This document shows, in pieces, positions 1,419-34,077 of a stretch of DNA of 34,077 bases. The DNA is from a virus. Lineage: Duplodnaviria > Heunggongvirae > Uroviricota > Caudoviricetes. The notes beneath the pieces are model-generated. The model was not told the DNA's origin. It saw only the letters and a program-made list of their open reading frames with translations, and did no database searches. How positions within the stretch are numbered: the stretch's first letter is position 1; each line of letters begins with the position of its first letter. The position numbers and the translations under genes are program-made. The stretch is taken from the IMG/VR virus record IMGVR_UViG_2547132421_000005. The stretch is one strand, 5' to 3'.

Positions 1419-2489
1419 TTATTTGATTTCAATTTTGTCCCACTCCCTGCCTCTGTCATCACGATACTGTGATGCCATGGTGTCCGACTTATGCCCGAGA
1501 AGATGTTGAGCAAACTTATCGCTTATCTGCTTCTCATAGAGTCTTGCAGACAAACTGCGCAACTCGTGAAAGGTAGGCGGATCCCCTTCGAAGGAAAGAC
1601 CTGATGCTTTTCGTGCGCGCATAAAATACCTTGATACTGTGCCGGATGAAAGCGGTTCGCGACGAGTAGATGCAATTATGGTTTCTCCGCCAAGAATCTC
1701 TTTGCATTTATCAAGTGTTTCCTTCATTGATATTCCGAGAGCATCAACATGCAATACTGTTGGGATGGCAATTTTTACGCCTGTTTTGCTTTGCTCGACA
1801 TAAAGATATCCATCTACGATATCAGACCACTTCATTTCGCATAAATCACCAACTCGTTGCCCGGTAACAACAGCCAGTTCCATTGCAAGTCTGAGCCAAC
1901 ATGGTGATGATTCTGCTGCTTGATAAATTTTCAGGTATTCGTCAGCCGTAAGTCTTGATCTCCTTACCTCTGATTTTGCTGCGCGAGTGGCAGCGACAGG
2001 GTTTGTTGTTATATGGCCTTCAGCTATTGCCTCTCGGAATGCATCGCTCAGTGTTGATCTGATTAACTTGGCTGACGCCGCCTTGCCCTCGTCTATGTAT
2101 CCATTGAGCATTGCCGCAATTTCTTTTGTGGTGATGTCTTCAAGTGGAGCATCAGGCAGACCCCTCCTTATTGCTTTAATTTTGCTCATGTAATTTATGA
2201 GTGTCTTCTGCTTGATTCCTCTGCTGGCCAGGATTTTTTCGTAGCGATCAAGCCATGAATGTAACGTAACGGAATTATCACTGTTGATTCTCGCTGTCAG
2301 AGGCTTGTGTTTGTGTCCTGAAAATAACTCAATGTTGGCCTGTATAGCTTCAGTGATTGCGATTCGCCTGTCTCTGCCTAATCCAAACTCTTTACCCGTC
2401 CTTGGGTCCCTGTAGCAGTAATATCCATTGTTTCTTATATAAAGGTTAGGGGGTAAATCCCGGCGCTCATGACTTCGCCTTCTTCCCAT
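1419..2489 (-). CDS. int: Lambda-type integrase (tyrosine recombinase), 356 aa
   Basis: Track ORF; MGRRRSHERRDLPPNLYIRNNGYYCYRDPRTGKEF matches lambda Int; length 356 aa as in lambda; 3' end overlaps the P' arm. Confidence 0.95.
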   Translation of the reverse strand: MGRRRSHERRDLPPNLYIRNNGYYCYRDPRTGKEFGLGRDRRIAITEAIQANIELFSGHKHKPLTARINSDNSVTLHSWLDRYEKILASRGIKQKTLINYMSKIKAIRRGLPDAPLEDITTKEIAAMLNGYIDEGKAASAKLIRSTLSDAFREAIAEGHITTNPVAATRAAKSEVRRSRLTADEYLKIYQAAESSPCWLRLAMELAVVTGQRVGDLCEMKWSDIVDGYLYVEQSKTGVKIAIPTVLHVDALGISMKETLDKCKEILGGETIIASTRREPLSSGTVSRYFMRARKASGLSFEGDPPTFHELRSLSARLYEKQISDKFAQHLLGHKSDTMASQYRDDRGREWDKIEIK

Positions 2490-2685
2490 TTCTGATCCTC
2501 TTCAAAAGGCTACCTGTTACTGGTCGATTTAAGTCAACCTTTACCGCTGATTCGTGGAACAGATACTCTCTTCCATCCTTAACCGGAGGAGGGAATATCC
2601 TGCACTCGCGTACCCATCGACGAACTGTTTCAAGGCTTCTTGGGCGTCGCTGGCGTGCGTTCCACTCCTGAAGTGTCAAGTACAT
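2467..2685 (-). CDS. xis: Excisionase Xis, 72 aa
   Basis: Track ORF; MYLTLQEWNARQRRPRSLETVRRWVRECRIFPPPVKDGREYLF matches lambda Xis; overlaps int start as in lambda. Confidence 0.95.
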   Translation of the reverse strand: MYLTLQEWNARQRRPRSLETVRRWVRECRIFPPPVKDGREYLFHESAVKVDLNRPVTGSLLKRIRNGKKAKS

Positions 2686-2712
2686 CGCAAAGTCTCCGCA
2701 ATTACACGCAAG

Positions 2713-2733
2713 AAAAAACCGCCATCAGGCGGC
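2713..2733 (-). terminator. Candidate intrinsic terminator (minus strand) just after a small ORF
   Basis: Forward aaaaaaccgccatcaggcgg: 5-bp GC stem ccgcc/ggcgg with 4-nt loop, followed on the minus strand by a run of six T. Read by eye. Confidence 0.35.
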
Positions 2734-2892
2734 TTGGTGTTCTTTCAGTTCTTCAATTCGAATATTGGTTACGTCTGCATGTGCTATCTGCGCCCATATC
2801 ATCCAGTGGTTATAACAGTCGTTGATGTTCTCTGCTTCGATAACCCTGTTGAATGGCTCTCCATTCCATTCACCTGTGACTCGGAAGTGCAT
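2725..2892 (-). CDS. Small hypothetical protein, 55 aa (not in ORF track, below size cutoff)
   Basis: My own translation of the minus strand: MHFRVTGEWNGEPFNRVIEAENINDCYNHWMIWAQIAHADVTNIRIEELKEHQAA; GGAG about 7 nt upstream of the ATG; ends in the terminator stem. Hand-read, unverified. Confidence 0.35.
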   Translation of the reverse strand: MHFRVTGEWNGEPFNRVIEAENINDCYNHWMIWAQIAHADVTNIRIEELKEHQAA

Positions 2893-2979
2893 TTATCATC
2901 TCCATAAAACAAAACTCGCCGTAGCGAGTTCAGATATAATTTCCACCAAAGGCAGTAGTTGCTTGATGCTAAGAATTAT

Positions 2980-3411
2980 TCAATATCTATTCCTGTAATA
3001 TCTTTTATCTTTTATCTTTTTCCTTGCAAAGCCTTTTGCTAGTGATTTTGAAACACTCATAAGTGTACTAATTCCCTCATCCTTAAAGTTTGTTTTTATA
3101 GCTTGCCAGACATCCTTTTGACGTAAGTCAGCAATAAAATCATGCCCTCTTGCTGTCAACCTCAGTGGTACTTCGATCCAACTATATCCAACACCTTCCC
3201 CTAACGCTTTGGACAATATATGACCGAACCCAGGTTTTCCATCAACCCTGACTATTAATTCGTAGTCACATAATAATCGCATATGGAAAATAAAATCTTG
3301 GTCATATCTATTAAAGCCATTATCCTCTAGTTCACTAAGCATCGTGTCAGGGCCACGAGTTTTTTCGAATGCGATAAGTAGATCTTTTAGATATTGCTGG
3401 TCTAATTTCAT
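2980..3411 (-). CDS. Hypothetical phage accessory protein, 143 aa (possibly a DUF2513-like family; uncertain)
   Basis: Track ORF; AT-rich coding sequence; no recognisable catalytic motif; lysine/arginine-rich C-terminus. Confidence 0.55.
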   Translation of the reverse strand: MKLDQQYLKDLLIAFEKTRGPDTMLSELEDNGFNRYDQDFIFHMRLLCDYELIVRVDGKPGFGHILSKALGEGVGYSWIEVPLRLTARGHDFIADLRQKDVWQAIKTNFKDEGISTLMSVSKSLAKGFARKKIKDKRYYRNRY

Positions 3412-3439
3412 TGCCGCCTCCGTGACATGTCACAGAGAT

Positions 3440-3778
3440 TTATATCATTAATTTTGTTTCGTGCCAGCCTTTGGTCACCCAGCATTGTGAGTCACCATTA
3501 CACGGGCATGAATTAACAGGAACTCTCTCGCCGCACTTACCGCACCGTTTTCTGCTGATCGATTTTATACGCCAGCGCACACGTGCATCATCCTGGCGGC
3601 TCAGTAACGCGATGTACTCACCAAACTCGCAAGGCGCACGCCTGAAGCGACGCGTGGCACAGTTACGCTCCAGCATTTCAATTTCCTGAGCATCAAGTAC
3701 AAGCTCCAGCTTACGCATACCGGATGATGCTTGCTTGGCTCTCTGATCGGCTTTGTGCTCTGTTGCTGATTTAGCCAT
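3440..3778 (-). CDS. Cys-rich small protein with C-terminal zinc-ribbon-like motif (possibly Ea8.5-like), 112 aa
   Basis: Track ORF; C-terminal RCGKCGERVPVNSCPCNGDSQC cysteine cluster; AGGA about 11 nt upstream of the ATG; position equivalent to the lambda ea region. Confidence 0.55.
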   Translation of the reverse strand: MAKSATEHKADQRAKQASSGMRKLELVLDAQEIEMLERNCATRRFRRAPCEFGEYIALLSRQDDARVRWRIKSISRKRCGKCGERVPVNSCPCNGDSQCWVTKGWHETKLMI

Positions 3779-3963
3779 TCTGCTTTTCCTGCATCAGGAG
3801 AAAGACAATCATGGCGGCGCGGATACTTCCGGTATCTTTTTACGCGATATTCCCCTTCAATGGCACATACAAGAAGAGAGCCATCAACAGGAGTGATTGA
3901 GGAATCGACAACCAGCAACGCTTAATTATCTATAGTGTCGTATTTGCTTCATAAAATATGGCG

Positions 3964-4007
3964 AATAACACAAAGCCCGCAGCAGCTCATTGTGCGGGCT
4001 TTTCTTA
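3964..4007. terminator. Hairpin terminator downstream of the secreted-protein gene
   Basis: aagcccgcagcagctcattgtgcgggctt: 7-bp stem gcccgca/tgcgggc; T-rich on the plus side (tttctta) and an A-run on the other side, so possibly bidirectional. Read by eye. Confidence 0.4.
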
Positions 4008-4071
4008 TACCTACTTCCTAGAGATAATTCTATGGAGGCATTAAATCAATACTGTCATTGGTAATATCATA

Positions 4072-4686
4072 TTATCTAAAAGTCTTTCCACTTTTAACAT
4101 CTAGGTATATTCTGTTCGACAACGTCATTCCTCCGCAATATGTGAAATAGATGTTTTCACCCTTATTGCTTGATGCCATCCACCCTCCGATTTCCTTAAA
4201 ATCGCTTTCCGTGCAGACCCCTTCATTTATTAACTTCCTAGCTGCCGAAGAAAACTCTTTTTTGTATATACGGTAGTCATCAGATCCTTTGATTAAAGTA
4301 TCATCTCCGCTCGCATTTTCAGCAGGATCTGATGGCCTTTCACTGCTAAGATCACTAAGTTTAACCCATTCTGAAAACTTGCCATTAACGATTCCATTTT
4401 TTCTTGTGCAGGATTTATTACCTTCTTTAATATATTCGCTTTCCCCTCCAACACATGAGGCTGAATATGGCTCAGTTATACGAACCCATTCACCTTTTTT
4501 TTCTAGAAAATCTACGCCTTCCCTGAAAAATAGTTTCCCAGCCACTCCACATTTACTTGAAGGGCAGGTATGTCTTTCCGTTCGATCAACAACAACCCAT
4601 AGTTTTGATTCATTTTTTGCCATTGCCGATGGTATTTGAGATGAGACAATTAACGTAAGCCCTAAAATTAGTATTGATTTTTTCAT
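4072..4686 (-). CDS. Secreted/periplasmic Cys-rich protein of unknown function, 204 aa
   Basis: Track ORF; N-terminal signal peptide MKKSILILGLTLIVSSQIPSAMA then mature region with about 10 Cys; AT-rich; own terminator downstream. Confidence 0.65.
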   Translation of the reverse strand: MKKSILILGLTLIVSSQIPSAMAKNESKLWVVVDRTERHTCPSSKCGVAGKLFFREGVDFLEKKGEWVRITEPYSASCVGGESEYIKEGNKSCTRKNGIVNGKFSEWVKLSDLSSERPSDPAENASGDDTLIKGSDDYRIYKKEFSSAARKLINEGVCTESDFKEIGGWMASSNKGENIYFTYCGGMTLSNRIYLDVKSGKTFR

Positions 4687-4984
4687 TGTAATTTCCTTTT
4701 ACTTTTTACAAAGCGTTTAATCATGGCTGATTATCTCTAAGTGTAGTAACAGCCTTGTGCGAAACATGTTACCAAATCGCCATTTCAGTGTATCCGCAGT
4801 TAGGCTGCCACTTCAAGGATTCCTAATTACATGGTACGTAAGCGTAAAATCCCGTTGGTTGGCGGGTAATAACTCTGATCAAATCTCCCTTGTCTTTTGC
4901 TCTTACGTATGCAGCTCTTGTGTATTCAACCCAGGCCTCCAGTTCAGCAATACGCTTACTTCCATCCGAGATAACACCTTCTAC

Positions 4985-5236
4985 TCACGCTGCTCGTTGA
5001 GTTTTGATTTTTGCTGTCTCCAGCTCAACACGCAGTTTCCCCACCGTTAGCGCAATATCCTCGTTCTCCTGGTCGCGGCGTTTGATGTATTGCTGGTTTC
5101 TTTCCCGTTCATCCAGCAGTGTCAGCACAATCGATGGTGTTACCAGCTCATGGAAAAGGTCCGCGTCAAATCCCCAGTTGTCAGGCATTGCCTGCTCTGC
5201 CGCTTCACGCAGTGCCTGAGAGTGAATTACGCTCAC
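4985..5236 (-). CDS. Hypothetical early-left protein, 83 aa, C-terminal coiled coil
   Basis: Track ORF; overlaps the start of the next gene by 4 nt. Confidence 0.5.
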   Translation of the reverse strand: MSVIHSQALREAAEQAMPDNWGFDADLFHELVTPSIVLTLLDERERNQQYIKRRDQENEDIALTVGKLRVELETAKIKTQRAA

Positions 5237-5454
5237 TTCGAACCTCTCTGTTTACTGATAAGCTCCAGATCTTCCTGGCAACTTGCACAAGTCCGACAAC
5301 CCTGAACGGCCAGGCGTCTTAGCTCATCTATGGGATCGCCACACTCACAACAATGAGTGGCAGATACAGCCTGGTGGTTCAGGCGGCGCATTTTTATTGC
5401 TGTGTTGCGCTGTAATTCTTCAATTTCTGATGCTGAATCAATGATGTCTGCCAT
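5233..5454 (-). CDS. TraR/DksA-family C4 zinc-finger protein (lambda orf73-like), 73 aa
   Basis: Track ORF; CCECGDPIDELRR...CRTCASCQ is the typical TraR/DksA C4 zinc-finger pattern. Confidence 0.8.
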   Translation of the reverse strand: MADIIDSASEIEELQRNTAIKMRRLNHQAVSATHCCECGDPIDELRRLAVQGCRTCASCQEDLELISKQRGSK

Positions 5455-5552
5455 CTTCCATTAATCCCTGAATTGTTGGTTAATACGCTTGGGGGTAAAT
5501 GCGAGCAATAAAAAAGGAGCCTGTAGCTCCCTGATAATTTTGCTTTTCATGT

Positions 5553-5768
5553 TCATCGTTCCTTAAAGACGCCGTTTAACATGCCGATTGCCAGGCTTAA
5601 ATGAGTCGGTGTGAATCCCATCAGCGTTACCGTTTCGCGGTGCTTCTTCAGTACGCTACGGCAAATGTCATCGACGTTTTTATCCGGAAACTGCTGTCTG
5701 GCTTTTTTGATTTCAGAATTAGCCTGACGGGCAATGCTGCGAAGGGCGTTTTCTTGCTGAGGTGTCAT
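5553..5768 (-). CDS. Hypothetical small protein (lambda orf61-position), 71 aa
   Basis: Within track ORF 5553..5834; I place the start at the internal Met (MTPQQENALRS...) because the upstream 22 codons overlap the neighbouring gene. Start uncertain. Confidence 0.45.
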   Translation of the reverse strand: MTPQQENALRSIARQANSEIKKARQQFPDKNVDDICRSVLKKHRETVTLMGFTPTHLSLAIGMLNGVFKER

Positions 5769-5844
5769 TGAACAAGCCCCATGTCGGCAAGCATAAGCAC
5801 ACAGAATATGAAGCCCGCTGCCAGAAAAATGCATTCAGTGGTTG

Positions 5845-6036
5845 TCATACCTGGTCTCTCTCATCTGCTTCTGCTTTCGCCACCATCATTTCCAGCTTTT
5901 GTGAAAGGGATGCGGCTAACGTATGAAATTCTTCGTCTGTTTCTACTGGTATTGGCACAAACCTGACTCCAATTTGAGCGAGGCTATGTGCCATCTCGAT
6001 ACACGTTCTTAACTCAACAGGAGATGCTTTGTGCAT
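5845..6036 (-). CDS. Hypothetical small protein (lambda orf63-position), 63 aa
   Basis: Track ORF; tightly packed with neighbours in the pL operon. Confidence 0.5.
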   Translation of the reverse strand: MHKASPVELRTCIEMAHSLAQIGVRFVPIPVETDEEFHTLAASLSQKLEMMVAKAEADERDQV

Positions 6037-6197
6037 ACAGCCCCCCGTTTATTATTTATCTCCTCAGCCAGCCGCTGTGCTTTCAGGGGATTTCTGATAA
6101 CAGAAAGGCCGGGAAATACCCAGCCTCGCTTTGTAACGGAGTAGACGAAAGTGATCGCACCTACCCGGATATTATCGTGAGGATGCTTCATCGCCAT
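6009..6197 (-). CDS. Hypothetical small protein (lambda orf60a-position), 62 aa
   Basis: Track ORF; start overlaps the exo stop, as orf60a does in lambda. Confidence 0.5.
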
Positions 6198-6868
6198 TGC
6201 TCCCCAAATACAAAACCAATTTCAGCCAGTGCCTCGTCCATTTTTTCGATGAACTCCGGCACCATCTCGTCAAAACTCGCCATGTACTTTTCATCCCGCT
6301 CAACCACGACATAATGCAGGCCTTCACGCTTCATACGCGGGTCATAGTTGGCAAAGTACCAGGCATCTTTTCGCGTCACCCACATGCTGTACTGCACCTG
6401 GGCCATGTAAGCCGACTTTATGGCCTCGAAACCACCGAGCCGGAACTTCATGAAATCCCGGGAGGTAAACGGGCATTTCAGCTCAAGGCCATTGCCGTCA
6501 CTGCATAAACCATCGGGAGAGCAGGCGGTACGCATACTTTCGTCGCGATAGATGATCGGGGATTCAGTAACATTCACGCCGGAAGTGAATTCAAACAGAG
6601 TTCTGGCGTCGTTCTCGTACTGTTTTCCCCATGCCAGCGCCTTAGCATTAACTTCCGGAGCCACACCGGTGCAAACCTCAGCCAGCAGGGTGTGGAAGTA
6701 GGACATTTTCATGTCAGGCCACTTTTTTCCGGAGCGGGGTTTTGCTATCACATTGTGAACTTCTGAAGCGGTGATGACGCCGAGCCGTAATTTGTGCCAC
6801 GCATCATCCCCCTGTTCGACAGCTCTCACGTCGATTCCGGTACGCTGCAGGATAATGTCCGGTGTCAT
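6188..6868 (-). CDS. exo: Lambda exonuclease (Red alpha), 226 aa
   Basis: Track ORF; [43 protein letters not shown] recognised as lambda Exo; same length. Confidence 0.95.
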
Positions 6869-7650
6869 GCAGCCACCTTCTGCTCAGTGGCTTTCTGTTT
6901 CAGGAATCCAAGAGCTTTCACTGCTTCGGCCTGTGTCAGTTCTGACGATGCGCGAATGTCGCGGCGAAATATCTGGGAACAGAGCGGCAATAAGTCGTCA
7001 TCCCATGTTTTATCCAGGGCAATCAGCAGAGTGTTAATCTCCTGCATGGTTTCATCGTTAACCGGAGTGATGTCGCGTTCCGGCTGACGTTCTGCAGTGT
7101 ATGCGGTATTTTCGACAATGCGCTCGGCTTCATCCTTGTCATAGATACCAGCAAATCCGAAGGCGAGACGGGCACACTGAATCATGGCTTTATGCCGTAA
7201 CATCCGTTTGGGATGCGACTGCCACGGCCCCGTGATTTCTCTGCCTTCGCGGGTTTTGAATGGTTCGCGGCGGCATTCATCCATCCACTCGGTAACGCAG
7301 ATCGGATGATTGCGGTCTTTGCGGTAAATCCGGCATGTGCAGGATTCATTGTCCTGCTCAAAGTCCATGCCATCAAACTGCTGGTTTTCATTGATGATAC
7401 GGGACCAGCCATCAACGCCCACCACCGGAACGATGCCGTTCTGCTTGTCAGGGAAGGCGTAAATTTCTTTCGTCCACGGATTAAGGCCGTACTGGTTGGC
7501 GACGATCAGCAATGCGATGAACTGCGCATCGCTGGCATCACCTTTAAATGCCGTCTGGCGAAGAGTGGTGATCAGTTCCTGTGGGTCGACAGAATCCATG
7601 CCGACGCGTTCAGCCAGCTTCCCAGCCAGCGTTGCGAGTGCTGTACTCAT
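6865..7650 (-). CDS. bet: Red beta single-strand annealing protein, 261 aa
   Basis: Track ORF; [48 protein letters not shown] recognised as lambda Bet. Confidence 0.95.
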
Positions 7651-7655
7651 CCGTT

Positions 7656-8072
7656 TTATACCTCTGAATCAATATCAACCTGGTGGTGAGCAATGGTTTC
7701 AACCATGTACCGGATGTGTTCTGCCATGCGCTCCTGAAACTCAACATCGTCATCAAACGCACGGGTAATGGCTTTTTTGCTGGCCCCGTGGCGTTGTAAA
7801 TGATCGATGCAGAGTGATTCAAACAGGTGCTGGGGCAGACCTTTTTCCATGTCGTCTGCCAGTTCTGCCTCTTTCTCTTCACGGGCGATCTGCTGGTAGT
7901 GACGCGTCCAGCTCTGAGCCTCAAGACGATCCTGAATGTAATAAGCGTTCATGGCTGAACTCCTGAAATAGCTGTGAAAATATCGCCCGCGAAATGCCGG
8001 GCTGATTAGGAAAACAGGAAAGGAGGTTAGTGAATGCTTTTGCTTGATCTCAGTTTCAGTATTAATATCCAT
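7656..8072 (-). CDS. gam: Gam (RecBCD inhibitor), 138 aa
   Basis: Track ORF; [16 protein letters not shown]...[10 protein letters not shown] recognised as lambda Gam. Confidence 0.95.
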
Positions 8073-8170
8073 TTTTTATAAGCGTCGACGGCCTCACGAA
8101 ACATCTTTTCATCGCCAATAAAAGTGGCGATAGTGAATTTAGTCTGGATAGCCATAAGTGTTTGATCCAT
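8027..8170 (-). CDS. kil: Kil (host cell-division inhibitor), 47 aa
   Basis: Internal Met of track ORF 8027..8296: [47 protein letters not shown] matches lambda Kil; overlaps gam and cIII as in lambda. Confidence 0.85.
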
Positions 8171-8303
8171 TTTTTGGGACTCCTGGCTGATTAAGTATGT
8201 CGATAAGGCGTTTCCATCCGTCACGTAATTTACGGGTGATTCGTTCAAGTAAAGATTCGGAAGGGCAGCCAGCAACAGGCCACCCTGCAATGGCATATTG
8301 CAT
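8139..8303 (-). CDS. cIII: CIII (FtsH inhibitor, stabilises CII), 54 aa
   Basis: My own translation of the minus strand from the ATG at 8303: MQYAIAGWPVAGCPSESLLERITRKLRDG..., matching lambda CIII; not in track (below cutoff). Confidence 0.75.
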   Translation of the reverse strand: MQYAIAGWPVAGCPSESLLERITRKLRDGWKRLIDILNQPGVPKNGSNTYGYPD

Positions 8304-8375
8304 GGTGTGCTCCTTATTTATACATAACGAAAAACGCCTCGAGTGAAGCGTTATTGGTATGCGGTAACGCCGCGC

Positions 8376-26697: not shown

Positions 26698-28104
26698 ATG
26701 GCTGATATATCAACACCCAACCTCGACTATAACGATATGCTGGAGGCGTGGGATATTAACGACGCACTGATGGGCGGTACGCTTGAAATGCGCAGGCAGG
26801 GGGAAAATTATCTCCCAAAATGGCCTAACGAAGATGAAGACGCTTATAAAAAACGCCTGTCTGTGGCTACGCTACTTCCTGTGTATGAAGAAAGCATTAA
26901 GCAAAATATTGGACGCATATTTGCAGAGCCGACAGTATTGAGTGAGGAAACGCCGGAAAAAATCAGGGAATATGCAGAAAATATCGACATGGAGGGGAGC
27001 CGACTGGATGTGTGGGCGCAGCAATTTTTCAGCCTCGCATTTCAGTATGGTGTGGCACATGCGCTGGTGGACTATCCACGAACGGATATGAAGGAGATCC
27101 GGACAAAAGCCGATGAAAATGCGGCTGGTGGTCGCCCATACGTTACGATGCTGAATCCACGCCAGGTTATTGGATGGAAATCGAAAGTTGAAAAAGGGAA
27201 AGTTGTTCTTACTGATTTGCGTATAAAAGAAGTCATCATTGTTGATGGTGATGATTTCGGGCAGAAGAAGGTGGAGCAGATCCGCCATATTATGCCCCGT
27301 TGCGTTGAAATTTATCGACGCAGCGAAGGTACTAATGGCGAATCTGTCTGGACGCTTCACGAGTCATGGAATACCAGCCGTGATGATATTCCTCTGGTAA
27401 CACTGTATACGAAGAAAACAGGGTTTATGCGTGGTACACCGCCATTGCTTAATCTTGGCTTGCTGAATATCAAGCACTGGCAAAGCCAGAGCGAGCAGGA
27501 CAATATTCTTCATGTTGCCCGCGTCCCATTGCTGGTGGCCTACGGGCTGGACAGGAATGAAGAACTGACGGTTGGTGCATCCACCGCTACGATTTTTGAG
27601 GACAGAACAAAAAATGGCCTCGAATATGTTGAACATAGTGGGGCAGCGATAGAATCTGGCGAAACATCACTGGAGAAGCTGGAAAATCAGATGCGTCATG
27701 CCGGCGCTAAACTTCTGCGGGCTGAAAATACATCCACCAAATCTGTTGATCAGACTAATGAAGAGCGGATGCAGGAAAACTCGCCGCTTTATACAATGGC
27801 GAACTCCCTCGAAGATGCCCTCGATAATATTCTCCAGATAATGGCGGAATGGATCGGAGAGAGTTGCGGCGGCAATGTGAATGTGCGCACTGAACTGGAT
27901 GTATCTGCCCAGGTGTTTGACTCATCCTCCGCGCTGGCTGTTCAGTCATTGCGTCAGGGCGGTGATATACGTCAGATTGATGCGGTTCGGGTGTTGCAGG
28001 CGTTGAAATTTATCGATCAGGATTCCCGTCCAGAGGAAGTGATCGATGAATTAAAAAATCAGAGTGTAATGCTGATGGAAATCAATGATGCAAACCGTGA
28101 ATGA
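26698..28104 (+). CDS. Portal protein, 468 aa
   Basis: Track ORF; size and position between terminase large subunit and head morphogenesis gene. Confidence 0.7.
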   Translation: MADISTPNLDYNDMLEAWDINDALMGGTLEMRRQGENYLPKWPNEDEDAYKKRLSVATLLPVYEESIKQNIGRIFAEPTVLSEETPEKIREYAENIDMEGSRLDVWAQQFFSLAFQYGVAHALVDYPRTDMKEIRTKADENAAGGRPYVTMLNPRQVIGWKSKVEKGKVVLTDLRIKEVIIVDGDDFGQKKVEQIRHIMPRCVEIYRRSEGTNGESVWTLHESWNTSRDDIPLVTLYTKKTGFMRGTPPLLNLGLLNIKHWQSQSEQDNILHVARVPLLVAYGLDRNEELTVGASTATIFEDRTKNGLEYVEHSGAAIESGETSLEKLENQMRHAGAKLLRAENTSTKSVDQTNEERMQENSPLYTMANSLEDALDNILQIMAEWIGESCGGNVNVRTELDVSAQVFDSSSALAVQSLRQGGDIRQIDAVRVLQALKFIDQDSRPEEVIDELKNQSVMLMEINDANRE

Positions 28105-29200
28105 ACGGCTGCGTGATGAATCAATTGCTCATGCAGTCTGGATATCTCGCTATAGCACTGGTGTGGCTGCCAGAATGGTGAAAACACTGAATGACAGCGA
28201 TGCGGAGCTTACAGCTCGCCTGCTGGTGGCACTGGACAGCCTCGATCCAGGTAGTTTCACCGTTACGCGCCTGGAGTCACTTCTGGCGAGTGTCAGAGAG
28301 GTTAACCGCGCTGCTATTAACAGCATGTTTACCAGGCTCTCCGGAGAGCTGAACGAGCTGGCAGTTTATGAGGCTGGTTATCAGTTAAGTCTGTTTGATT
28401 CTCTGCTACCTGATTTTGTTGCTGATGTTCACCCTCTGGTTGGTATCTCACCTGATGCACTTTATGCCGCGGCAATGGCGCGACCATTCCAGGGACGACT
28501 GCTCAGTGAGTGGGCCTCAGATCTTGAGGCGGATCGGCTCAGACGCATAACAAATACGGTGCGTCAGGGTTTTTTGTTGGGGGATACCAATGAGCAGATC
28601 GCAAGAAAAATTCGGGGACATGTCAGTAAGGGATTTCAGGATGGTGCATTGCAGATGAGCCGGGCTAATGCGGCCAGCATTGCAAAAACAGCGGTTGGAC
28701 ATCTTGCTGCTACTGCCCGTGAGAGTTTTGCCAGCGCGAATAATGATTTGATTAAGGGTAAGCAATGGTTATCAACGCTTGATAATCGTACTACGCCACA
28801 ATGTCGAATCAGGGATCGCCTCAAATATACGCTGAATAATAAACCTGTAGGTCACAGCGTGCCTTATTTGCAGGGGCCGGGAAAAATTCATTTCTGCTGC
28901 CGCTCAACGGAAACGTTCATTCTGAAATCAGCGAAGGAACTGGGTATTGATGTTCGTGATATTTCCCCGGCTGAGCGGGCCAGCATGGATGGCGTGGTGG
29001 CCGGAGATACAACCTACAGGGAATGGTTTTTGCGTCAGCCTTACACCAGACAAAAACAGATTGTGGGGGAAACCCGGGCAAAGCTGATTCGGGATGGCGG
29101 TATGTCGCCAGATGAATTTTACACCGATAAAGGCGAATGGCTGACGCTGAAGCAACTCCGTGAGCGTGATGCACAGGTATTCAGAAAAGCAGGGATTTAA
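28085..29200 (+). CDS. Head morphogenesis / minor head protein (SPP1 gp7 / Mu F-like), 371 aa
   Basis: Track ORF; position after portal. Confidence 0.65.
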   Translation: MMQTVNERLRDESIAHAVWISRYSTGVAARMVKTLNDSDAELTARLLVALDSLDPGSFTVTRLESLLASVREVNRAAINSMFTRLSGELNELAVYEAGYQLSLFDSLLPDFVADVHPLVGISPDALYAAAMARPFQGRLLSEWASDLEADRLRRITNTVRQGFLLGDTNEQIARKIRGHVSKGFQDGALQMSRANAASIAKTAVGHLAATARESFASANNDLIKGKQWLSTLDNRTTPQCRIRDRLKYTLNNKPVGHSVPYLQGPGKIHFCCRSTETFILKSAKELGIDVRDISPAERASMDGVVAGDTTYREWFLRQPYTRQKQIVGETRAKLIRDGGMSPDEFYTDKGEWLTLKQLRERDAQVFRKAGI

Positions 29201-29219
29201 ATAAATCATTTATTACAAC

Positions 29220-29246
29220 AGGCTACCTTCGGGTGGCCTTTTTTAT
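29220..29246 (+). terminator. Intrinsic terminator after the head morphogenesis gene
   Basis: ggctacc-ttcg-ggtggcc hairpin (one wobble pair) followed by ttttttatt. Confidence 0.5.
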
Positions 29247-29304
29247 TGCTGCGATCCGGATGGTGAGCAGCGTAACTGTCGGAAGACTTAAACCAGGTAC
29301 TAAT

Positions 29305-30069
29305 ATGAAACTGAAAACGGTCGAGATTAACGGAAAACAATACGCAGAAATTGATACTGCTGGCCTGCCAGTTTATGTGCACGACGATGGTAAAGAAATC
29401 GGCTTCGATGCACCGCTGGCGATAAAAAAAATTACAGAGCTTAATGGCGAGGCAAAAAATCATCGCCTGGCTAAAGAAGCTGCAGAGGAAAAACTGGCTA
29501 AGTTTGCCGCTATCGAAGACCCGAAGAAGGCGATCGAGGCACTGGAAATGCTGTCAAAAATCGACCAGAAAAAGCTGATCGATGCGGGACAGGTTGACCA
29601 GGTTAAGGCAGAAATTACGAAAAATTTTCAGCAGCAATTAGATGAAGAAAAGCAACGCTCTCAGATGCTGGAGACGCAGCTTTACGATTCTATGATTGGC
29701 GGTAGTTTTGCGGGGTCAAAATATATTGCCGATAAAATTGCGATCCCGGCAGATTTATTACAAGCCCGCTTCGGGCAGGCATTCAAAGTGGAAGAAGGGA
29801 AGATCGTTGCTTATGACGCTTCCGGCAACAAAATTTATTCCCGCGCGAAGCCTGGCGAACTGGCGCAGTTTGATGAGGCGCTGGAGTTCCTCGTCGAAAA
29901 TTACCCTCAGAAAGACTACATCCTGAAAGCCAGTGGCAACAATGGCGGCGGCTCCCGTCCGACACAGCATGATATTGGTCAGAAAACGATGAAACGCTCT
30001 GCTTTTGATGCACTGGATGTTGCAGGTAAGCAAAACGCATTGAAAGACGGTATCACAATCGTTGATTAA
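29305..30069 (+). CDS. Scaffolding protein (candidate), 254 aa
   Basis: Internal ATG of track ORF 29233..30069 (MKLKTVEINGKQYAEIDTAG...); acidic, helix-rich; lies directly upstream of the capsid gene. Confidence 0.55.
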   Translation: MKLKTVEINGKQYAEIDTAGLPVYVHDDGKEIGFDAPLAIKKITELNGEAKNHRLAKEAAEEKLAKFAAIEDPKKAIEALEMLSKIDQKKLIDAGQVDQVKAEITKNFQQQLDEEKQRSQMLETQLYDSMIGGSFAGSKYIADKIAIPADLLQARFGQAFKVEEGKIVAYDASGNKIYSRAKPGELAQFDEALEFLVENYPQKDYILKASGNNGGGSRPTQHDIGQKTMKRSAFDALDVAGKQNALKDGITIVD

Positions 30070-30167
30070 CACATTTGTCAGCTTCCGGATGGGAGCTGGT
30101 GTCAGGGCTGGATAGCTCATTACTCCATCTATTCACAATTACGCAAATTTTTAAGGAATATTTAATT

Positions 30168-31307
30168 ATGGCTGGAAATACCCTGACCGGGTTGATCCCG
30201 ACTATTTATACCGCCCTGGATGTTGTATCCCGTGAGCAGGTAGGTTTTATCCCTGCGGTAGCAAAAAACGCAAAAGCTGACGCCGCAGCAAAAGATCAGA
30301 CGGTAACCGCGCCAGTTGCGCCTGAGGCGAAAACCGAAGATATCGTACCAGGGCCGTCAGCTCCGAATACCGGTGATCAAAATATTGGCACTGTTGATGT
30401 AAAAATTACTAAATCCAAAATGGCACCGGTTAAATGGAATGGTGAAGAACAACTGGCTCTTGGCCCTTCAGGGACTTACAACACCATTCTGGCTGATCAG
30501 TTCAAGCAGGCTTTTCGCGCCCTTGCAAACGAGGTTGAGGCTGATCTTGGTGCGTTGTATTTCGGTGCTTCCCGCGCCGTGGGAACCGCAGGGACAACGC
30601 CGTTTGGTGTTAAAGATGATCTTTCTGATGCTGCTCTGGCTCGTCAGGTTCTGGAGGATAACGGCGCACCGACAACCGATCTGCAGATGGTGCTTGGCTC
30701 CACTGCCATTGCTAATTTGCGCGGAAAACAGTCTGTATTGTTTAAAGTGAATGAATCCGGCACTGAACAGCTACTGCGTGAGGGCGTGTTGGGGCGTCTG
30801 GAGGGATTCAATATTCACAGTTCGGCAGGTGTGAAACGAGCGCCAAAGGTTGCTGCAACTGGTTATCTCGTGAATGGAGAGAAAAAAGAAGGCGATGTTC
30901 TTATTTCCATTGATACTGGTTCGGGGAGTATTTCTGCAGGTCAGATTGTTACGTTCGCTGGTGATCCGAATCAGTATGTTGTGGCAGCAGCGACCAGCAA
31001 TCTGATTACTCTTGCAGCGCCCGGACTGCGTCAGGATCTGGCCGATGATACTGCCATCACAGTTGTTGGGGCCTTTACTGCAAATATGGCGTTTGATCGC
31101 AACGCGTTTCTGCTGGCATCCCGTACTCCGGCAATGCCGGAAGGTGGCGATAATGCTGATGATGTAATGAATGTTACGGACCCGATTTCAGGGATTACGT
31201 TCCAGATTGCACTGTATCGTCAGTATCGCCAGGTGCGCTATGAAGTTGGACTGGCATGGGGTGTTTCATCAGTGAAGCCGGCACATGGTTGTCTGATTCT
31301 TGGTTAA
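30168..31307 (+). CDS. Major capsid protein (candidate), 379 aa
   Basis: Internal ATG of track ORF 30075..31307 (MAGNTLTGLIPTIYTALDVVSREQVGFIPAVAKN...); AGGA RBS; followed by a strong terminator. Confidence 0.65.
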   Translation: MAGNTLTGLIPTIYTALDVVSREQVGFIPAVAKNAKADAAAKDQTVTAPVAPEAKTEDIVPGPSAPNTGDQNIGTVDVKITKSKMAPVKWNGEEQLALGPSGTYNTILADQFKQAFRALANEVEADLGALYFGASRAVGTAGTTPFGVKDDLSDAALARQVLEDNGAPTTDLQMVLGSTAIANLRGKQSVLFKVNESGTEQLLREGVLGRLEGFNIHSSAGVKRAPKVAATGYLVNGEKKEGDVLISIDTGSGSISAGQIVTFAGDPNQYVVAAATSNLITLAAPGLRQDLADDTAITVVGAFTANMAFDRNAFLLASRTPAMPEGGDNADDVMNVTDPISGITFQIALYRQYRQVRYEVGLAWGVSSVKPAHGCLILG

Positions 31308-31316
31308 ACATTCAAA

Positions 31317-31337
31317 CGGGGCTTCGGCCCCATTTTT
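31317..31337 (+). terminator. Intrinsic terminator after the capsid gene
   Basis: ggggc-ttcg-gcccc hairpin followed by attttta. Confidence 0.55.
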
Positions 31338-31349
31338 AATGGGGGGCAT

Positions 31350-31526
31350 ATGGCCGGATTAACTAAAGAGCAAAGAGCACAGCGTGAAGCCGCACAAAAA
31401 ACGCAAATTGAGTTAGTGGTTATGGTGACCGATTATCAGATGTTTCCCGGCGCACCAACTATCGCTAATGTTCATCCTGATGAAGTTGACAACTGGAAGG
31501 CTATGGGCTGGAAAACTCAGGAGTAA
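31350..31526 (+). CDS. Small hypothetical head-region protein, 58 aa (not in track)
   Basis: My own translation: MAGLTKEQRAQREAAQKTQIELVVMVTDYQMFPGAPTIANVHPDEVDNWKAMGWKTQE; ends 3 nt before the next gene. Hand-read. Confidence 0.4.
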   Translation: MAGLTKEQRAQREAAQKTQIELVVMVTDYQMFPGAPTIANVHPDEVDNWKAMGWKTQE

Positions 31527-31529
31527 CAC

Positions 31530-31925
31530 ATGATCACTTACGTGACCTGTGATGACGTTGATAATGCGTTTGGGAACGCCTGGACGAGTGAGAACGCTAA
31601 AAATAAAGCTGTTTTAATGGCTAATGCCTGGCTTAATGGTTTCAACCTGAAAATTAACCCATCCCGTATTCCGGAAGAGGTAAAACTTGCGGGAGCGTAT
31701 GCAGCCAGAATTGCCTCATTCGGTAAGTTGTTTCAGCAGAAAAATGATTCTGGCGTTGTTATCAGTAAAGCCGTGTCGGCTGACGGGGTCAGTGTATCGA
31801 AATCATTTTCTGAGTTGCCAGCAAACAGCACTGCATTGCTTGAACCCGATTTACAGCTTGCGATAGCACTGCTGAAACCGTACGGACTTAGTCGCTCACA
31901 AGTCAGGGTTGTGAGGGGGGGATAA
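31530..31925 (+). CDS. Head-tail connector / DNA-packaging (gp6-like) protein, 131 aa
   Basis: Track ORF; position after capsid; translationally coupled to the next gene. Confidence 0.45.
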   Translation: MITYVTCDDVDNAFGNAWTSENAKNKAVLMANAWLNGFNLKINPSRIPEEVKLAGAYAARIASFGKLFQQKNDSGVVISKAVSADGVSVSKSFSELPANSTALLEPDLQLAIALLKPYGLSRSQVRVVRGG

Positions 31926-32308
31926 TGGGGCTTCGTGAAGAGATTCAGTCAGAGGTTGCCGCTGCTTTTGATGAGGATTTAGCGGACGCCGTGAGTGATA
32001 TTTCTGGTTCTTACGTTACGCACCGGCACTGGGATCCTGTGACGGAAACTGGCGGCGAATCCACCGCAATCTATACCGGGCGAGGCGTGTTGACACGTTA
32101 TAAGCTGGGCAGAATTGATGGGATTAATATTTTGCATGGTGACCTTAAATTAACCGCTCTGGTATGCGAGGTTACGGATAAACCAGCTGTCGACCATATT
32201 ATTGAGATTTATGATCCTGTATCAAGGCAGTTACAACGATACGAGGTAATTACAGCAAGTGTAGATCCTTCCGCATCAGTTTACTCTATCCAGTTAAGGA
32301 GAGCGTAA
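31925..32308 (+). CDS. Head-tail adaptor / head closure protein (candidate), 127 aa
   Basis: Track ORF; position. Confidence 0.45.
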   Translation: MGLREEIQSEVAAAFDEDLADAVSDISGSYVTHRHWDPVTETGGESTAIYTGRGVLTRYKLGRIDGINILHGDLKLTALVCEVTDKPAVDHIIEIYDPVSRQLQRYEVITASVDPSASVYSIQLRRA

Positions 32309-32659
32309 ATGGCAAAGGCATGGGATATAGAACCGTCAATATTTGCCGGGATGATTGAGGAAGATGTAGGGCTGAAGATTCGCTACATCGCTATTCAGAT
32401 TCTTACTGCTATTGATATTGCTGCTCCGGTTGATACCGGACGTTTCAGAAATAACAACCTGGTGTCGTTACAGCATCCCGATTTTGGTATATCTGATAAC
32501 GTGGATCCGAACGGTACGATTGCTGTTCAGCGTGGGATCGGGGTTATTTCGAAAGCTGCAAATTACGGGGTTATTTATATCCAAAATAACCTTCCTTATG
32601 CAGAGGCTCTTGAAAACGGTCATTCACAACAAGCGCCAACTGGCGTGTATGCCAACGCT
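32309..32659 (+). pseudogene. Tail-component gene (HK97 gp10-like family, tentative) truncated at its 3' end by IS1
   Basis: Track ORF 32309..32686 runs into IS1; its last residues (GDAANLLI) are encoded by the IS1 terminal repeat, so the native C-terminus is missing. Confidence 0.5.
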
Positions 32660-32714
32660 GGTGATGCTGCCAACTTACTGATTTAGTGTATGATGGTGTT
32701 TTTGAGGTGCTCCA

Positions 32715-32990
32715 GTGGCTTCTGTTTCTATCAGCTGTCCCTCCTGTTCAGCTACTGACGGGGTGGTGCGTAACGGCAAAAGCACCGCCGGACATCAGCG
32801 CTATCTCTGCTCTCACTGCCGTAAAACATGGCAACTGCAGTTCACTTACACCGCTTCTCAACCCGGTACGCACCAGAAAATCATTGATATGGCCATGAAT
32901 GGCGTTGGATGCCGGGCAACAGCCCGCATTATGGGCGTTGGCCTCAACACGATTTTACGTCACTTAAAAAACTCAGGCCGCAGTCGGTAA
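32715..32990 (+). CDS. insA: IS1 InsA, 91 aa
   Basis: Track ORF; [43 protein letters not shown]. Confidence 0.9.
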
Positions 32991-33412
32991 CCTCGCGCAT
33001 ACAGCCGGGCAGTGACGTCATCGTCTGCGCGGAAATGGACGAACAGTGGGGCTATGTCGGGGCTAAATCGCGCCAGCGCTGGCTGTTTTACGCGTATGAC
33101 AGGCTCCGGAAGACGGTTGTTGCGCACGTATTCGGTGAACGCACTATGGCGACGCTGGGGCGTCTTCTGAGCCTGCTGTCGGCCTTTGACGTGGTGATAT
33201 GGATGACGGATGGCTGGCCGCTGTATGAATCCCGCCTGAAGGGAAAGCTGCACGTAATCAGCAAGCGATATACGCAGCGAATTGAGCGGCATAACCTGAA
33301 TCTGAGGCAGCACCTGGCACGGCTGGGACGGAAGTCGCTGTCGTTCTCAAAATCGGTGGAGCTGCATGACAAAGTCATCGGGCATTATCTGAACATAAAA
33401 CACTATCAATAA
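32909..33412 (+). CDS. insB: IS1 InsB reading frame (normally expressed as an InsAB' frameshift fusion)
   Basis: Track ORF; overlaps the 3' end of insA in the -1 frame, as in IS1. Confidence 0.85.
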
Positions 33413-33427
33413 GTTGGAGTCATTACC

Positions 33428-34077
33428 CCCGCGTTATACCACGTCCCATTAATGCAATACTGAATTGGCCTTGCCTGAGTTGTATCAATTAATTCATCAC
33501 GGTTTCCGTTAACTGAACCCGTAACGACATAACCTGACCTGTCAGACCAGCCGGGGCCTTTCCATGTCTGAACAGATGACAGACCGCCAAGGCGAATACC
33601 TGTAATAAACCTTGAGTTACATTCTGCCTGCGTATATGCACCAACATCCCCCGCAGAGGGTTTGCGTGTTGTGGTGTAAAACTCTGACCAGTTAGCTTCA
33701 AAGCCATAACCATCACGCGCTGAACGATAAAAAATACCGCCGTTCCTGTAATTCACGCGGAACTGTACAGCAGGGCAACTCCCCGCATTCATATTGAAGT
33801 GGAGGATTAATGTCGATGCACCACTGATATCTGCATCATAAACACCGCTATTCCAGTTCCAGCCAACAGCTTTATCATTTGCGACCCTGCGTCCTGTTTG
33901 CCCTAAAGCAAATGCAGGCTGCTGGTTTTTCGTGTTGTAGTCTCGTCGCCAGCCAGGAGCGTAAGCATCACCATGATTAATATAAGTGAATTGAGCGTTA
34001 GTAATTCCGCCACCGCTGGACGTGCTCGGCGTAGTAACGCGTATGGTCATTGCGCCGCGAGTGCCAATAACTTCCAC
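33428..34077 (-). pseudogene. Tail-fibre-like gene fragment on the minus strand, 3' end truncated by IS1; 5' end beyond the window
   Basis: Track ORF 33406..34077 (no real start, runs to the window edge); Gly/Ser/Thr/Asn-rich beta-type sequence typical of tail-fibre distal domains; last 6 codons and stop come from the IS1 end. Confidence 0.45.

Follow-up and report, generated by a model that had tools for sequence, protein, structure and literature searches.

A mosaic segment between ea22 and orf55 of a lambda-like prophage, with a gene for a predicted exported SH3b protein

Introduction

In lambdoid phages the exo-xis region comprises the conserved genes orf60a-orf63-orf61-orf73-ea22, followed by a variable gene set (PMC8614690). 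Ea22 favours lysogeny (PMC7093339, PMC10834534), and for Orf55, whose gene is uncharacterised, a T7 Gp2-like fold has been put forward as a speculation (PMC8614690). Here we describe how the variable slot is occupied in IMG/VR virus record IMGVR_UViG_2547132421_000005, a stretch of 34,077 nucleotides that was analysed at full length and that we refer to as the window. The slot holds some 2 kb of foreign DNA with genes for a DUF2513 protein of 143 residues, a 112-residue relative of epsilon15 gp49 and a 204-residue SH3b protein, all on the minus strand and thus in the direction of pL transcription. Since the window begins within ybhC, followed by a lambda-type int (1419-2489) and xis (2467-2685), it represents a lambdoid E. 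coli prophage at attB-lambda. The site is the same as in the exo-xis tail of lambda, phi24B and 933W, and orf55 is retained, but ea8.5 is absent, ea22 is truncated, and the DUF2513, gp49-like and SH3b genes are not described for those phages (PMC8614690). An earlier note on this DNA had proposed that four uncharacterised genes form an AT-rich accessory island here, possibly an undescribed anti-phage system.

The individual parts of the segment have counterparts in several described systems. The gp49-like gene belongs with epsilon15 gp49 and N15 gp46 (PHROG 536, annotated as 'transcriptional regulator'), with which it shares a pattern of cysteines and a palindrome at the stop codon; we know of no function shown for any member of this family. 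In epsilon15-like phages and prophages the homolog is the final early-right gene, directly before terS, whereas here a lambda-like phage has it in its early-left operon. Beside it is a remnant of about 36 codons that matches the central S24 peptidase region of P1 HumD, a UmuD' homolog. A full humD adjoins the 204-residue gene in a P1-like contig, whereas the fragment in the window lies on the opposite side of that gene. The 204-residue gene itself recalls the morons, a concept that reportedly goes back to Hendrix and colleagues. Like lambda bor and lom and the morons of HK97, it is a single inserted gene of lower guanine-cytosine (GC) content with a downstream terminator and a predicted envelope product, although this product has no sequence relationship with Bor, Lom or other known moron products, and no consensus promoter was found. 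SH3b domains are also part of endolysins, lysostaphin and NlpC/P60 enzymes, from which the 204-residue protein differs in having no attached hydrolase domain, in its predicted location in the Gram-negative periplasm and in an extra insert predicted to bear a disulfide (C78-C93). T4 Sp, Ivy, PliC/MliC and the immunity proteins against amidases of the type VI secretion system (T6SS) are small proteins that contain disulfides, are exported and work at the peptidoglycan layer without being enzymes. Their likeness to the 204-residue protein is one of functional analogy only; some members of its family are C-domain lipoproteins of about 105 residues.

Results

Boundaries and mosaic structure of the foreign segment

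The limits of the foreign DNA were mapped by blastn of the window against lambda 27700-33500. Positions 1331-2940, which include orf55 and a hairpin at 2912-2931, are 98.9% identical to lambda 27724-29333, and positions 4938-8340 are 97.1% identical to lambda 30094-33500. Because lambda identity stops at 2940 and restarts at 4938, the foreign segment is 2941-4937 and not 2690-4760, the limits that had been assigned to the island. It has displaced 760 bp of lambda DNA (29334-30093) with ea8.5 and the 3' part of ea22. Other elements of the earlier description stand, namely the four minus-strand open reading frames (ORFs) at 2725-2892 (55 codons), 2980-3411 (143 codons), 3440-3778 (112 codons) and 4072-4686 (204 codons), the lambda-like flanks (int and xis on one side, the orf73/orf61/orf63/orf60a/exo/bet block on the other) and the view of the site as a known variable slot, for it lies between ea22 and xis, and ea8.5 and the 3' end of ea22 have been replaced (lambda blastn; PMC8614690). 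The segment and the features within it are as follows.

2941-4937 (1,997 bp), no strand: foreign mosaic segment, delimited by blastn against lambda
2980-3411, minus strand: DUF2513 gene (winged-helix family), 143 residues, 36% GC (Pfam PF10711; PHROG 585)
2999-3019, plus strand: three copies of TATCTTT (AAAGATA three times on the coding strand); two copies in nearly all relatives
3422-3433, no strand: perfect 12-bp palindrome GTGACATGTCAC, 6 nt after the stop codon of the 112-residue gene and just 5' of the ribosome-binding site of the DUF2513 gene
3440-3778, minus strand: gene of the 112-residue protein, epsilon15 gp49 / PHROG 536 family (PHROG 536, E = 7.3e-48)
3811-3918 (ORF 3601-3918), minus strand: internal humD/umuD-like fragment of about 36 codons, a pseudogene (NCBIfam HumD)
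3962-4003, minus strand: hairpin and U-tract resembling an intrinsic terminator (-19.2 kcal/mol, z = -2.2)
4072-4686, minus strand: gene of the 204-residue protein, predicted to be exported, 38% GC; signal peptide, SH3b domain at about 28-110, alpha/beta C-domain at about 125-204, six cysteines
4687-4828, minus strand: 5' region travelling with the 204-residue ORF (alignment with contig L274), with a weak candidate promoter inside it
About 4787-4816, minus strand: weak candidate promoter TTGAAG-N18-TACACT, hexamers conserved with respect to L274, below the threshold of the consensus scan

We conclude with high confidence that the segment 2941-4937 is a recombinational mosaic of three independently derived parts and not one system. 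The DUF2513, 112-residue and 204-residue genes differ in GC content (36, 50 and 38%) and have separate distributions, and therefore have different origins. The composition of the individual genes (orf55, 45.8%; DUF2513, 36.3%; 112-residue gene, 50.4%; 204-residue gene, 38.0%; window mean, 46.6%) shows that the supposed AT-rich island is AT-rich in its DUF2513 and 204-residue genes, but not in the 112-residue gene between them; the region as a whole ranks in the lowest 5-9% of windows of the same length for GC, and the 204-residue gene in the lowest 6%. The first part of the mosaic is a module from the early-right operon end of an epsilon15-like (Uetakevirus-type) phage, made up of the gp49-like gene, GTGACATGTCAC and the DUF2513 gene, the second a dead fragment of humD, and the third a moron-like cassette consisting of the 142-bp 5' region, the 204-residue ORF and the terminator.

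The distribution of the genes argues in the same direction. The isolated phage Chlobot carries the whole block with 99.7% identity, and of 5426 complete E. coli genomes 131 contain it at a coverage of at least 80%, in a few cases on large plasmids (in one example, pABWA45_1, it lies beside chromosomal-type genes). In the same genomes the 112-residue gene was counted in 633, the DUF2513 gene in 183 and the 204-residue gene in 132. All E. coli copies of the 204-residue gene are at least 95% identical, with the ORF 97-100% conserved across 130 genomes; since they thus belong to one prophage lineage, the co-occurrence of the genes in E. coli reflects descent and not functional linkage. In the case examined, a DUF2513 gene without the 204-residue gene proved to be an IS1 deletion of the same prophage. 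Outside E. coli, in the Pseudomonas and Aeromonas loci, the P1-like contig and a set of 77 loci, the 204-residue gene is never found beside the 112-residue, DUF2513 or orf55 genes, and Chlobot is the only one of 50,697 phage records to encode the 204-residue protein. The proposal that the four genes form a unit therefore fails, as orf55 belongs to the backbone and the 204-residue gene has no conserved neighbour in the 77 loci. Nor do the genes of the slot travel together: only the pair of 112-residue and DUF2513 genes recurs elsewhere, and each of its members is also found alone. In one enterotoxigenic E. coli genome (L084, H102) an IS1 comes right after the DUF2513 gene, and the rest of the prophage genes are missing from the adjoining sequence.

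The 204-residue protein and its cassette

A Sec-type signal peptide (MKK...AMA, with cleavage before K) is predicted at the N-terminus of the 204-residue protein, as the earlier note had also read it; in some homologs its place is taken by a lipobox. The AlphaFold model has a pLDDT of 89.9, with low confidence for residues 1-24 of the signal peptide. The domain that follows has an SH3b fold, and Pfam SH3_3 matches 37 of 39 homologs. Beyond it lies an alpha/beta C-domain of 80 residues with no catalytic signature, no Pfam model and no structural neighbour. Sequence searches of solved structures returned nothing useful, and matches to de novo TIM barrels (query A1) were compositional artefacts. 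In longer relatives the only fusion partners are ankyrin repeats, extra SH3b copies and zinc-ribbon or transmembrane anchors, that is, binding or anchoring modules. The number of cysteines is six (positions 41, 46, 78, 93, 158 and 184) and not about ten, as had been counted, and all six are at least 90% conserved among homologs. Distant homologs drop C41/C46 and C78/C93 pairwise, while C158/C184 is kept even in stand-alone C-domain lipoproteins of about 105 residues. This pairwise loss suggests three disulfides, which probably join residues 41-46, 78-93 and 158-184.

The protein belongs to PHROG 8310. Its homologs in Pseudomonas and Aeromonas are 60-69% identical to it, and more distant ones come from Vibrio, Shewanella, Rhodobacterales, Acidobacteriota and others; at E <= 1e-3 it matches about 1,494 cluster representatives (50% identity). 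The earlier statement that the four proteins could not be placed was thus too strong, since they fall into PHROG 676, DUF2513 / PHROG 585, PHROG 536 and PHROG 8310, uncharacterised though these families are.

A contig of a P1/P7-like element (L274, from SRR12184017) delimits the cassette. It is 84.8% identical at the DNA level to window positions 4828-4070, a stretch that opens 142 bp before the start codon and ends precisely with the stop codon; the 5' region therefore travels with the ORF. A consensus sigma-70 scan of the minus strand of 2400-5400 gave no site, so that of the promoter-like region proposed earlier only the weak candidate TTGAAG-N18-TACACT is left. The hairpin with U-tract 3' of the gene, in turn, does score as a predicted terminator on folding; it lies outside the DNA common to the window and L274. 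It is also terminator-like on the plus strand (-17.5 kcal/mol, z = -3.3), where the terminator scan found the site. A scan for non-coding RNA gave no Rfam match in 2400-5400 at E <= 1.

The positions that this gene takes elsewhere are typical of cargo. In L274 the cassette lies directly downstream of humD, in Pseudomonas islands the homolog directly follows the integrase, and in an Aeromonas prophage it lies between the Q antiterminator and the lysis genes. When flanking ORFs were clustered, no conserved neighbour emerged across 77 loci from many phyla, the only regularities being genus-level synteny in Vibrio and integrases in Pseudomonas. The idea of an independently transcribed moron is in keeping with most of this: the gene is inserted between genes that are adjacent in lambda (where the order is ea22-ea8.5-orf55, 2 kb of foreign DNA now stand between the truncated ea22 and orf55), it has a deviant GC content, a predicted terminator and a travelling 5' region, and it occupies cargo positions, but a consensus promoter was not found.

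Two of these contexts have features of their own. In Pseudomonas (L003-L005, L276-L278) the homolog comes right after a tyrosine integrase in a small island. Neither Pfam nor PADLOC matches the other four or five genes of this island, save for weak hits to KilA-N and DUF6971; the island is an uncharacterised integrative element. In L274 the cassette has as neighbours a gene for a Tad2-like (Thoeris anti-defence 2-like) protein and one for a dUTPase, and these may constitute a cargo cluster of P1-like elements. Within E. coli, IS1 insertions break the 204-residue gene in genomes H31, H61 and H74.

The gp49-like gene and its palindrome

The PHROG 536 profile covers residues 1-111 of the 112-residue protein, that is, its full length, and the protein is 70% identical to epsilon15 gp49. 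By tblastn, homologs are present in 55 phage records, epsilon15 gp49 included. In Salmonella lambdoid prophages the gene lies in the nin region, and in TL-2011b, HEMP4 and ZX5 it is, alone, about 90% identical to that of the window. The N-terminus is ribbon-helix-helix-like, as judged from a weak match of residues 9-48 to CopG-type YbfE (E = 0.007, below cut-off), and four cysteines (C79, C82, C91 and C99) that are invariant in the family form a zinc-ribbon-like C-terminal cluster. The protein is thus probably a DNA binder of the ribbon-helix-helix plus zinc-ribbon type. A search of the accessible literature found nothing on the function of epsilon15 gp49. In the E. coli lineage the protein has C at the conserved Y50, S at the conserved I60 and F-R in place of the family's P-G (45-46); these odd residues may reflect relaxed constraint after the move into a lambda backbone.

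The palindrome GTGACATGTCAC accompanies this gene. It lies at or beside the stop codon of every gp49-family gene of at least about 55% identity, regardless of which gene follows. Pectobacterium ZF40 and a Klebsiella phage retain it alongside their gp49-like gene, as does Pantoea AH07 with one mismatch. The palindrome is absent at the 31-37% identical homologs of Yersinia and Aeromonas phages. While the window has a single copy, GTGACATGTCAC is the only 12-nt palindrome that is repeated inside each of the Uetakevirus genomes epsilon15, phiV10 and TL-2011b, which hold two or three copies; about 0.002 would be expected by chance for one given 12-mer in 40 kb. The sites are:

epsilon15 (L187): 2142, 19517, 39612
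phiV10 (L279): 2262, 19493
TL-2011b (L188): 11500, 32282

These sites lie at the stop codon of the gp49-family gene, just after terL and at the end of the structural operon (epsilon15, phiV10) and after ant (TL-2011b). They mark ends of transcription units, and several are 0-5 nt from an intrinsic terminator. The palindrome carries no annotation in the epsilon15 RefSeq record, and no mention of it was found in the searchable literature. From its spacing and sequence we reason that it is not a CRP, FNR or LexA box, and the annotated operators of the epsilon15 repressor read ATTACC-N5-GGTAAT, which rules out an operator of this kind. It is possible that the gp49-family protein and GTGACATGTCAC constitute a portable pair of DNA-binding protein and site that marks the ends of transcription units near terminators in epsilon15-like phages. 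That the gp49-like protein would be a DNA-binding regulator with the palindrome as its cognate site is a reading to which we give slightly less than even chances.

The DUF2513 gene and the humD remnant

The PF10711 match of the DUF2513 protein scores 42.5 bits (gathering cut-off, 29.6), and residues 2-115 span all 100 positions of the profile. Homologs are found across Enterobacterales, 90 of 90 carrying PF10711 and all 90 aligning to residues 1-135 only. The C-terminus of the window copy has been altered by the TATCTTT repeat: pairwise blastn against two relatives (L001 and L002) gives a single 7-bp gap at 2999-3019, and the triplication frameshifts the last 8 or so residues, so that the conserved tail ...KKKIKDLTGxDxx is absent. 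The triplication looks like a slipped-strand expansion. One further IMG/VR contig, L107, also has the three-copy allele.

In Cronobacter epsilon15-like prophages, homologs of the 112-residue gene and of DUF2513 (60% and 61% protein identity) stand in this order, 27 nt apart, and the spacer holds the same perfect palindrome GTGACATGTCAC as that of the window. The 112-residue homolog lies upstream in 16 of about 40 divergent DUF2513 loci of viral contigs, and several further loci have the coding end of the family (...GWHETKL and the stop codon) directly upstream, bringing the pair to 16-20 of about 40. Where DUF2513 is missing, what comes after the 112-residue gene is a 70-residue Y11B-like gene, a UmuD-like gene, an excisionase or a terminator alone. 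As for DUF2513 without the 112-residue gene, Serratia prophages have it close to int, and a Klebsiella phage has it in the interval that separates the lysis genes from terS. We read DUF2513 as one of what would be several alternative cargo genes just 3' of the gp49-like gene and the palindrome. A type II toxin-antitoxin pair, with a ribbon-helix-helix antitoxin and a downstream toxin, was considered and rejected, because such a pair should co-occur obligately and the two genes each occur without the other. DUF2513 itself has no mention that we could find in the searchable literature.

Between the gp49-like gene and the 204-residue cassette stands the humD remnant. It matches positions 47-99 of 129 of the HumD profile at 53.4 bits, against a cut-off of 120, and holds no complete S24 peptidase domain. 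The orthologous stretch in relatives is annotated by PGAP as a partial 'DNA repair protein' pseudogene, and the fragment is 75% identical to HumD residues 47-82 of L274. The fragment is recombination debris. In the Chlobot annotation an ORF overlapping it is called 'UmuD-like protein' and the 112-residue gene is split; since the PHROG 536 match is full-length, this call looks wrong.

Discussion

All parts of the segment are of known kinds (the variable slot of the exo-xis region, a cassette resembling a moron, and PHROG and DUF families that are uncharacterised), and the segment as a whole is ordinary phage mosaicism. The new elements are modest: this particular mosaic, an unannotated domain family that is predicted to be exported and is carried by mobile elements, and a conserved palindrome tied to the gp49 family. 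The locus shows epsilon15-like and P1-like modules pasted into a lambda backbone and adds one more variant to those described for the slot, and neither the predicted exported domain nor the palindrome changes current understanding unless a phenotype is found.

On balance we favour an account in which the mosaic brings with it a factor for lysogenic conversion, encoded by the 204-residue gene. In such a scenario the protein would be expressed in the lysogen, leave the cytoplasm through the Sec pathway and acquire disulfides on folding, and its SH3b domain would tether it to peptidoglycan, thereby presenting the C-domain. The C-domain would act by binding rather than catalysis, shielding peptidoglycan from, or inhibiting, an incoming wall-degrading or wall-crossing protein, with a phage tail lysin, a lysozyme or a T6SS amidase as candidate targets, and would thus be protective. 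Taken by itself, this specific role as a peptidoglycan-tethered conversion factor of the binding or inhibitor type at the cell wall is a tentative assignment, and several observations weigh against it. No consensus promoter was found, and the gene could be expressed only from pL in lytic growth. The family is syntenic and chromosomal in Vibrio, at the genus level, and common in Rhodobacterales, and such chromosomal copies point to a general role in the envelope that is not specific to phages. The IS1 insertions in a few E. coli genomes show that the gene is dispensable, and the decay seen in the truncated ea22, the humD fragment, the DUF2513 tail and the substitutions of the 112-residue protein suggests that the segment may be partly non-functional. 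A wider proposal, that the 204-residue protein founds an undescribed class of envelope protection in which an SH3b-anchored, disulfide-stapled novel domain neutralises wall-degrading or wall-crossing proteins and spreads as single-gene cargo of lambda-like, P1-like and other mobile elements of Gammaproteobacteria, seems unlikely to us.

The earlier proposal, in which 2690-4760 would be a single undescribed system of genes that work together in anti-phage defence or superinfection exclusion, draws on the adjacency and common orientation of these genes in a slot known for accessory genes (PMC8614690), and within E. coli the 204-residue gene is nearly always accompanied by the others (131 genomes with the whole block and 132 with the gene). 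Yet this co-occurrence is that of a single lineage of at least 95% identity in which DUF2513-only cases are IS1 deletions, the 204-residue gene is never beside the others outside E. coli, orf55 belongs to lambda, and a terminator and a pseudogene fragment stand between the 204-residue gene and the rest. As to defence, PADLOC-DB v2 gave no matches at E <= 0.1 for the five products of the region, nor for the Pseudomonas neighbours of the 204-residue gene. The comparative data have largely refuted this proposal already, and we regard it as very improbable.

It is also conceivable that the 204-residue protein has a general housekeeping function in the envelope or cell wall, say as a peptidoglycan-associated scaffold or a stress protein, and that it only hitch-hikes on mobile elements and takes no part in conflicts among phages or between phage and host. 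The breadth of the family, with its approximately 1,494 representatives spanning Alpha- and Gammaproteobacteria, Acidobacteriota and Vampirovibrionales, would fit this, as would the syntenic chromosomal gene of Vibrio and the existence of stand-alone C-domain lipoproteins. However, only 132 of 5426 E. coli genomes have the gene, and copies from different orders (E. coli, Pseudomonas, Aeromonas) share 60-69% identity and lie beside integrases or in prophages, which indicates recent horizontal spread as cargo and usually implies a selectable accessory benefit. A housekeeping role is as tentative, in our estimate, as the conversion factor. Alternatively, the segment could consist mostly of decaying recombination debris with no current function for prophage or host. 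The truncation of ea22, the fragmentary humD, the frameshifted DUF2513 tail with its 7-bp repeat expansion, the substitutions of the 112-residue protein at near-invariant positions and the IS1 insertions in some genomes would all be expected under decay, but the three full ORFs are intact and the same block is carried by Chlobot, a free-living isolated phage. The 204-residue ORF is, moreover, 97-100% conserved in 130 genomes, and many positions, all six cysteines included, are invariant across the wider family. We consider a segment made up of debris to be improbable, and the favoured account of a mosaic with a conversion factor retains the decayed humD fragment as one of its parts.

Flanking lambda genes and other features

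Three features of the lambda backbone border the segment:

2725-2892, minus strand: orf55 (lambdap35; PHROG 676, E = 1.7e-39), inside the block of 98.9% identity to lambda
2912-2931, minus strand: lambda-derived terminator-like hairpin (terminator scan; -12.1 kcal/mol, z = -3.2)
4985-5236, minus strand: truncated ea22, the N-terminal 83 codons only (Pfam Ead_Ea22, E = 1.3e-20, N-terminal part of the profile only)

By its alignment, the ORF of 55 codons is lambda's own orf55 and lies outside the foreign segment. The hairpin, within the lambda-homologous DNA that ends at 2940, is now found 3' of the DUF2513 gene. On the other side, the conserved block orf60a-orf63-orf61-orf73-ea22 is present in order at 6197-4985 (matches to DUF1317, DUF1382, PHROG 303, TraR/DksA-like and Ead_Ea22), with ea22 truncated. 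This gene has been cut to 83 codons because the foreign segment took the place of its 3' part, and in identical prophages PGAP annotates the stump as a frameshifted, incomplete pseudogene. Given the role of Ea22 in lysogeny, the prophage may therefore differ from lambda in its lysis-lysogeny decision. Further patches of low GC content (below 40% over 500 nt) lie elsewhere in the window, at about 8.3-9.6 kb and at 16-22.5 kb.

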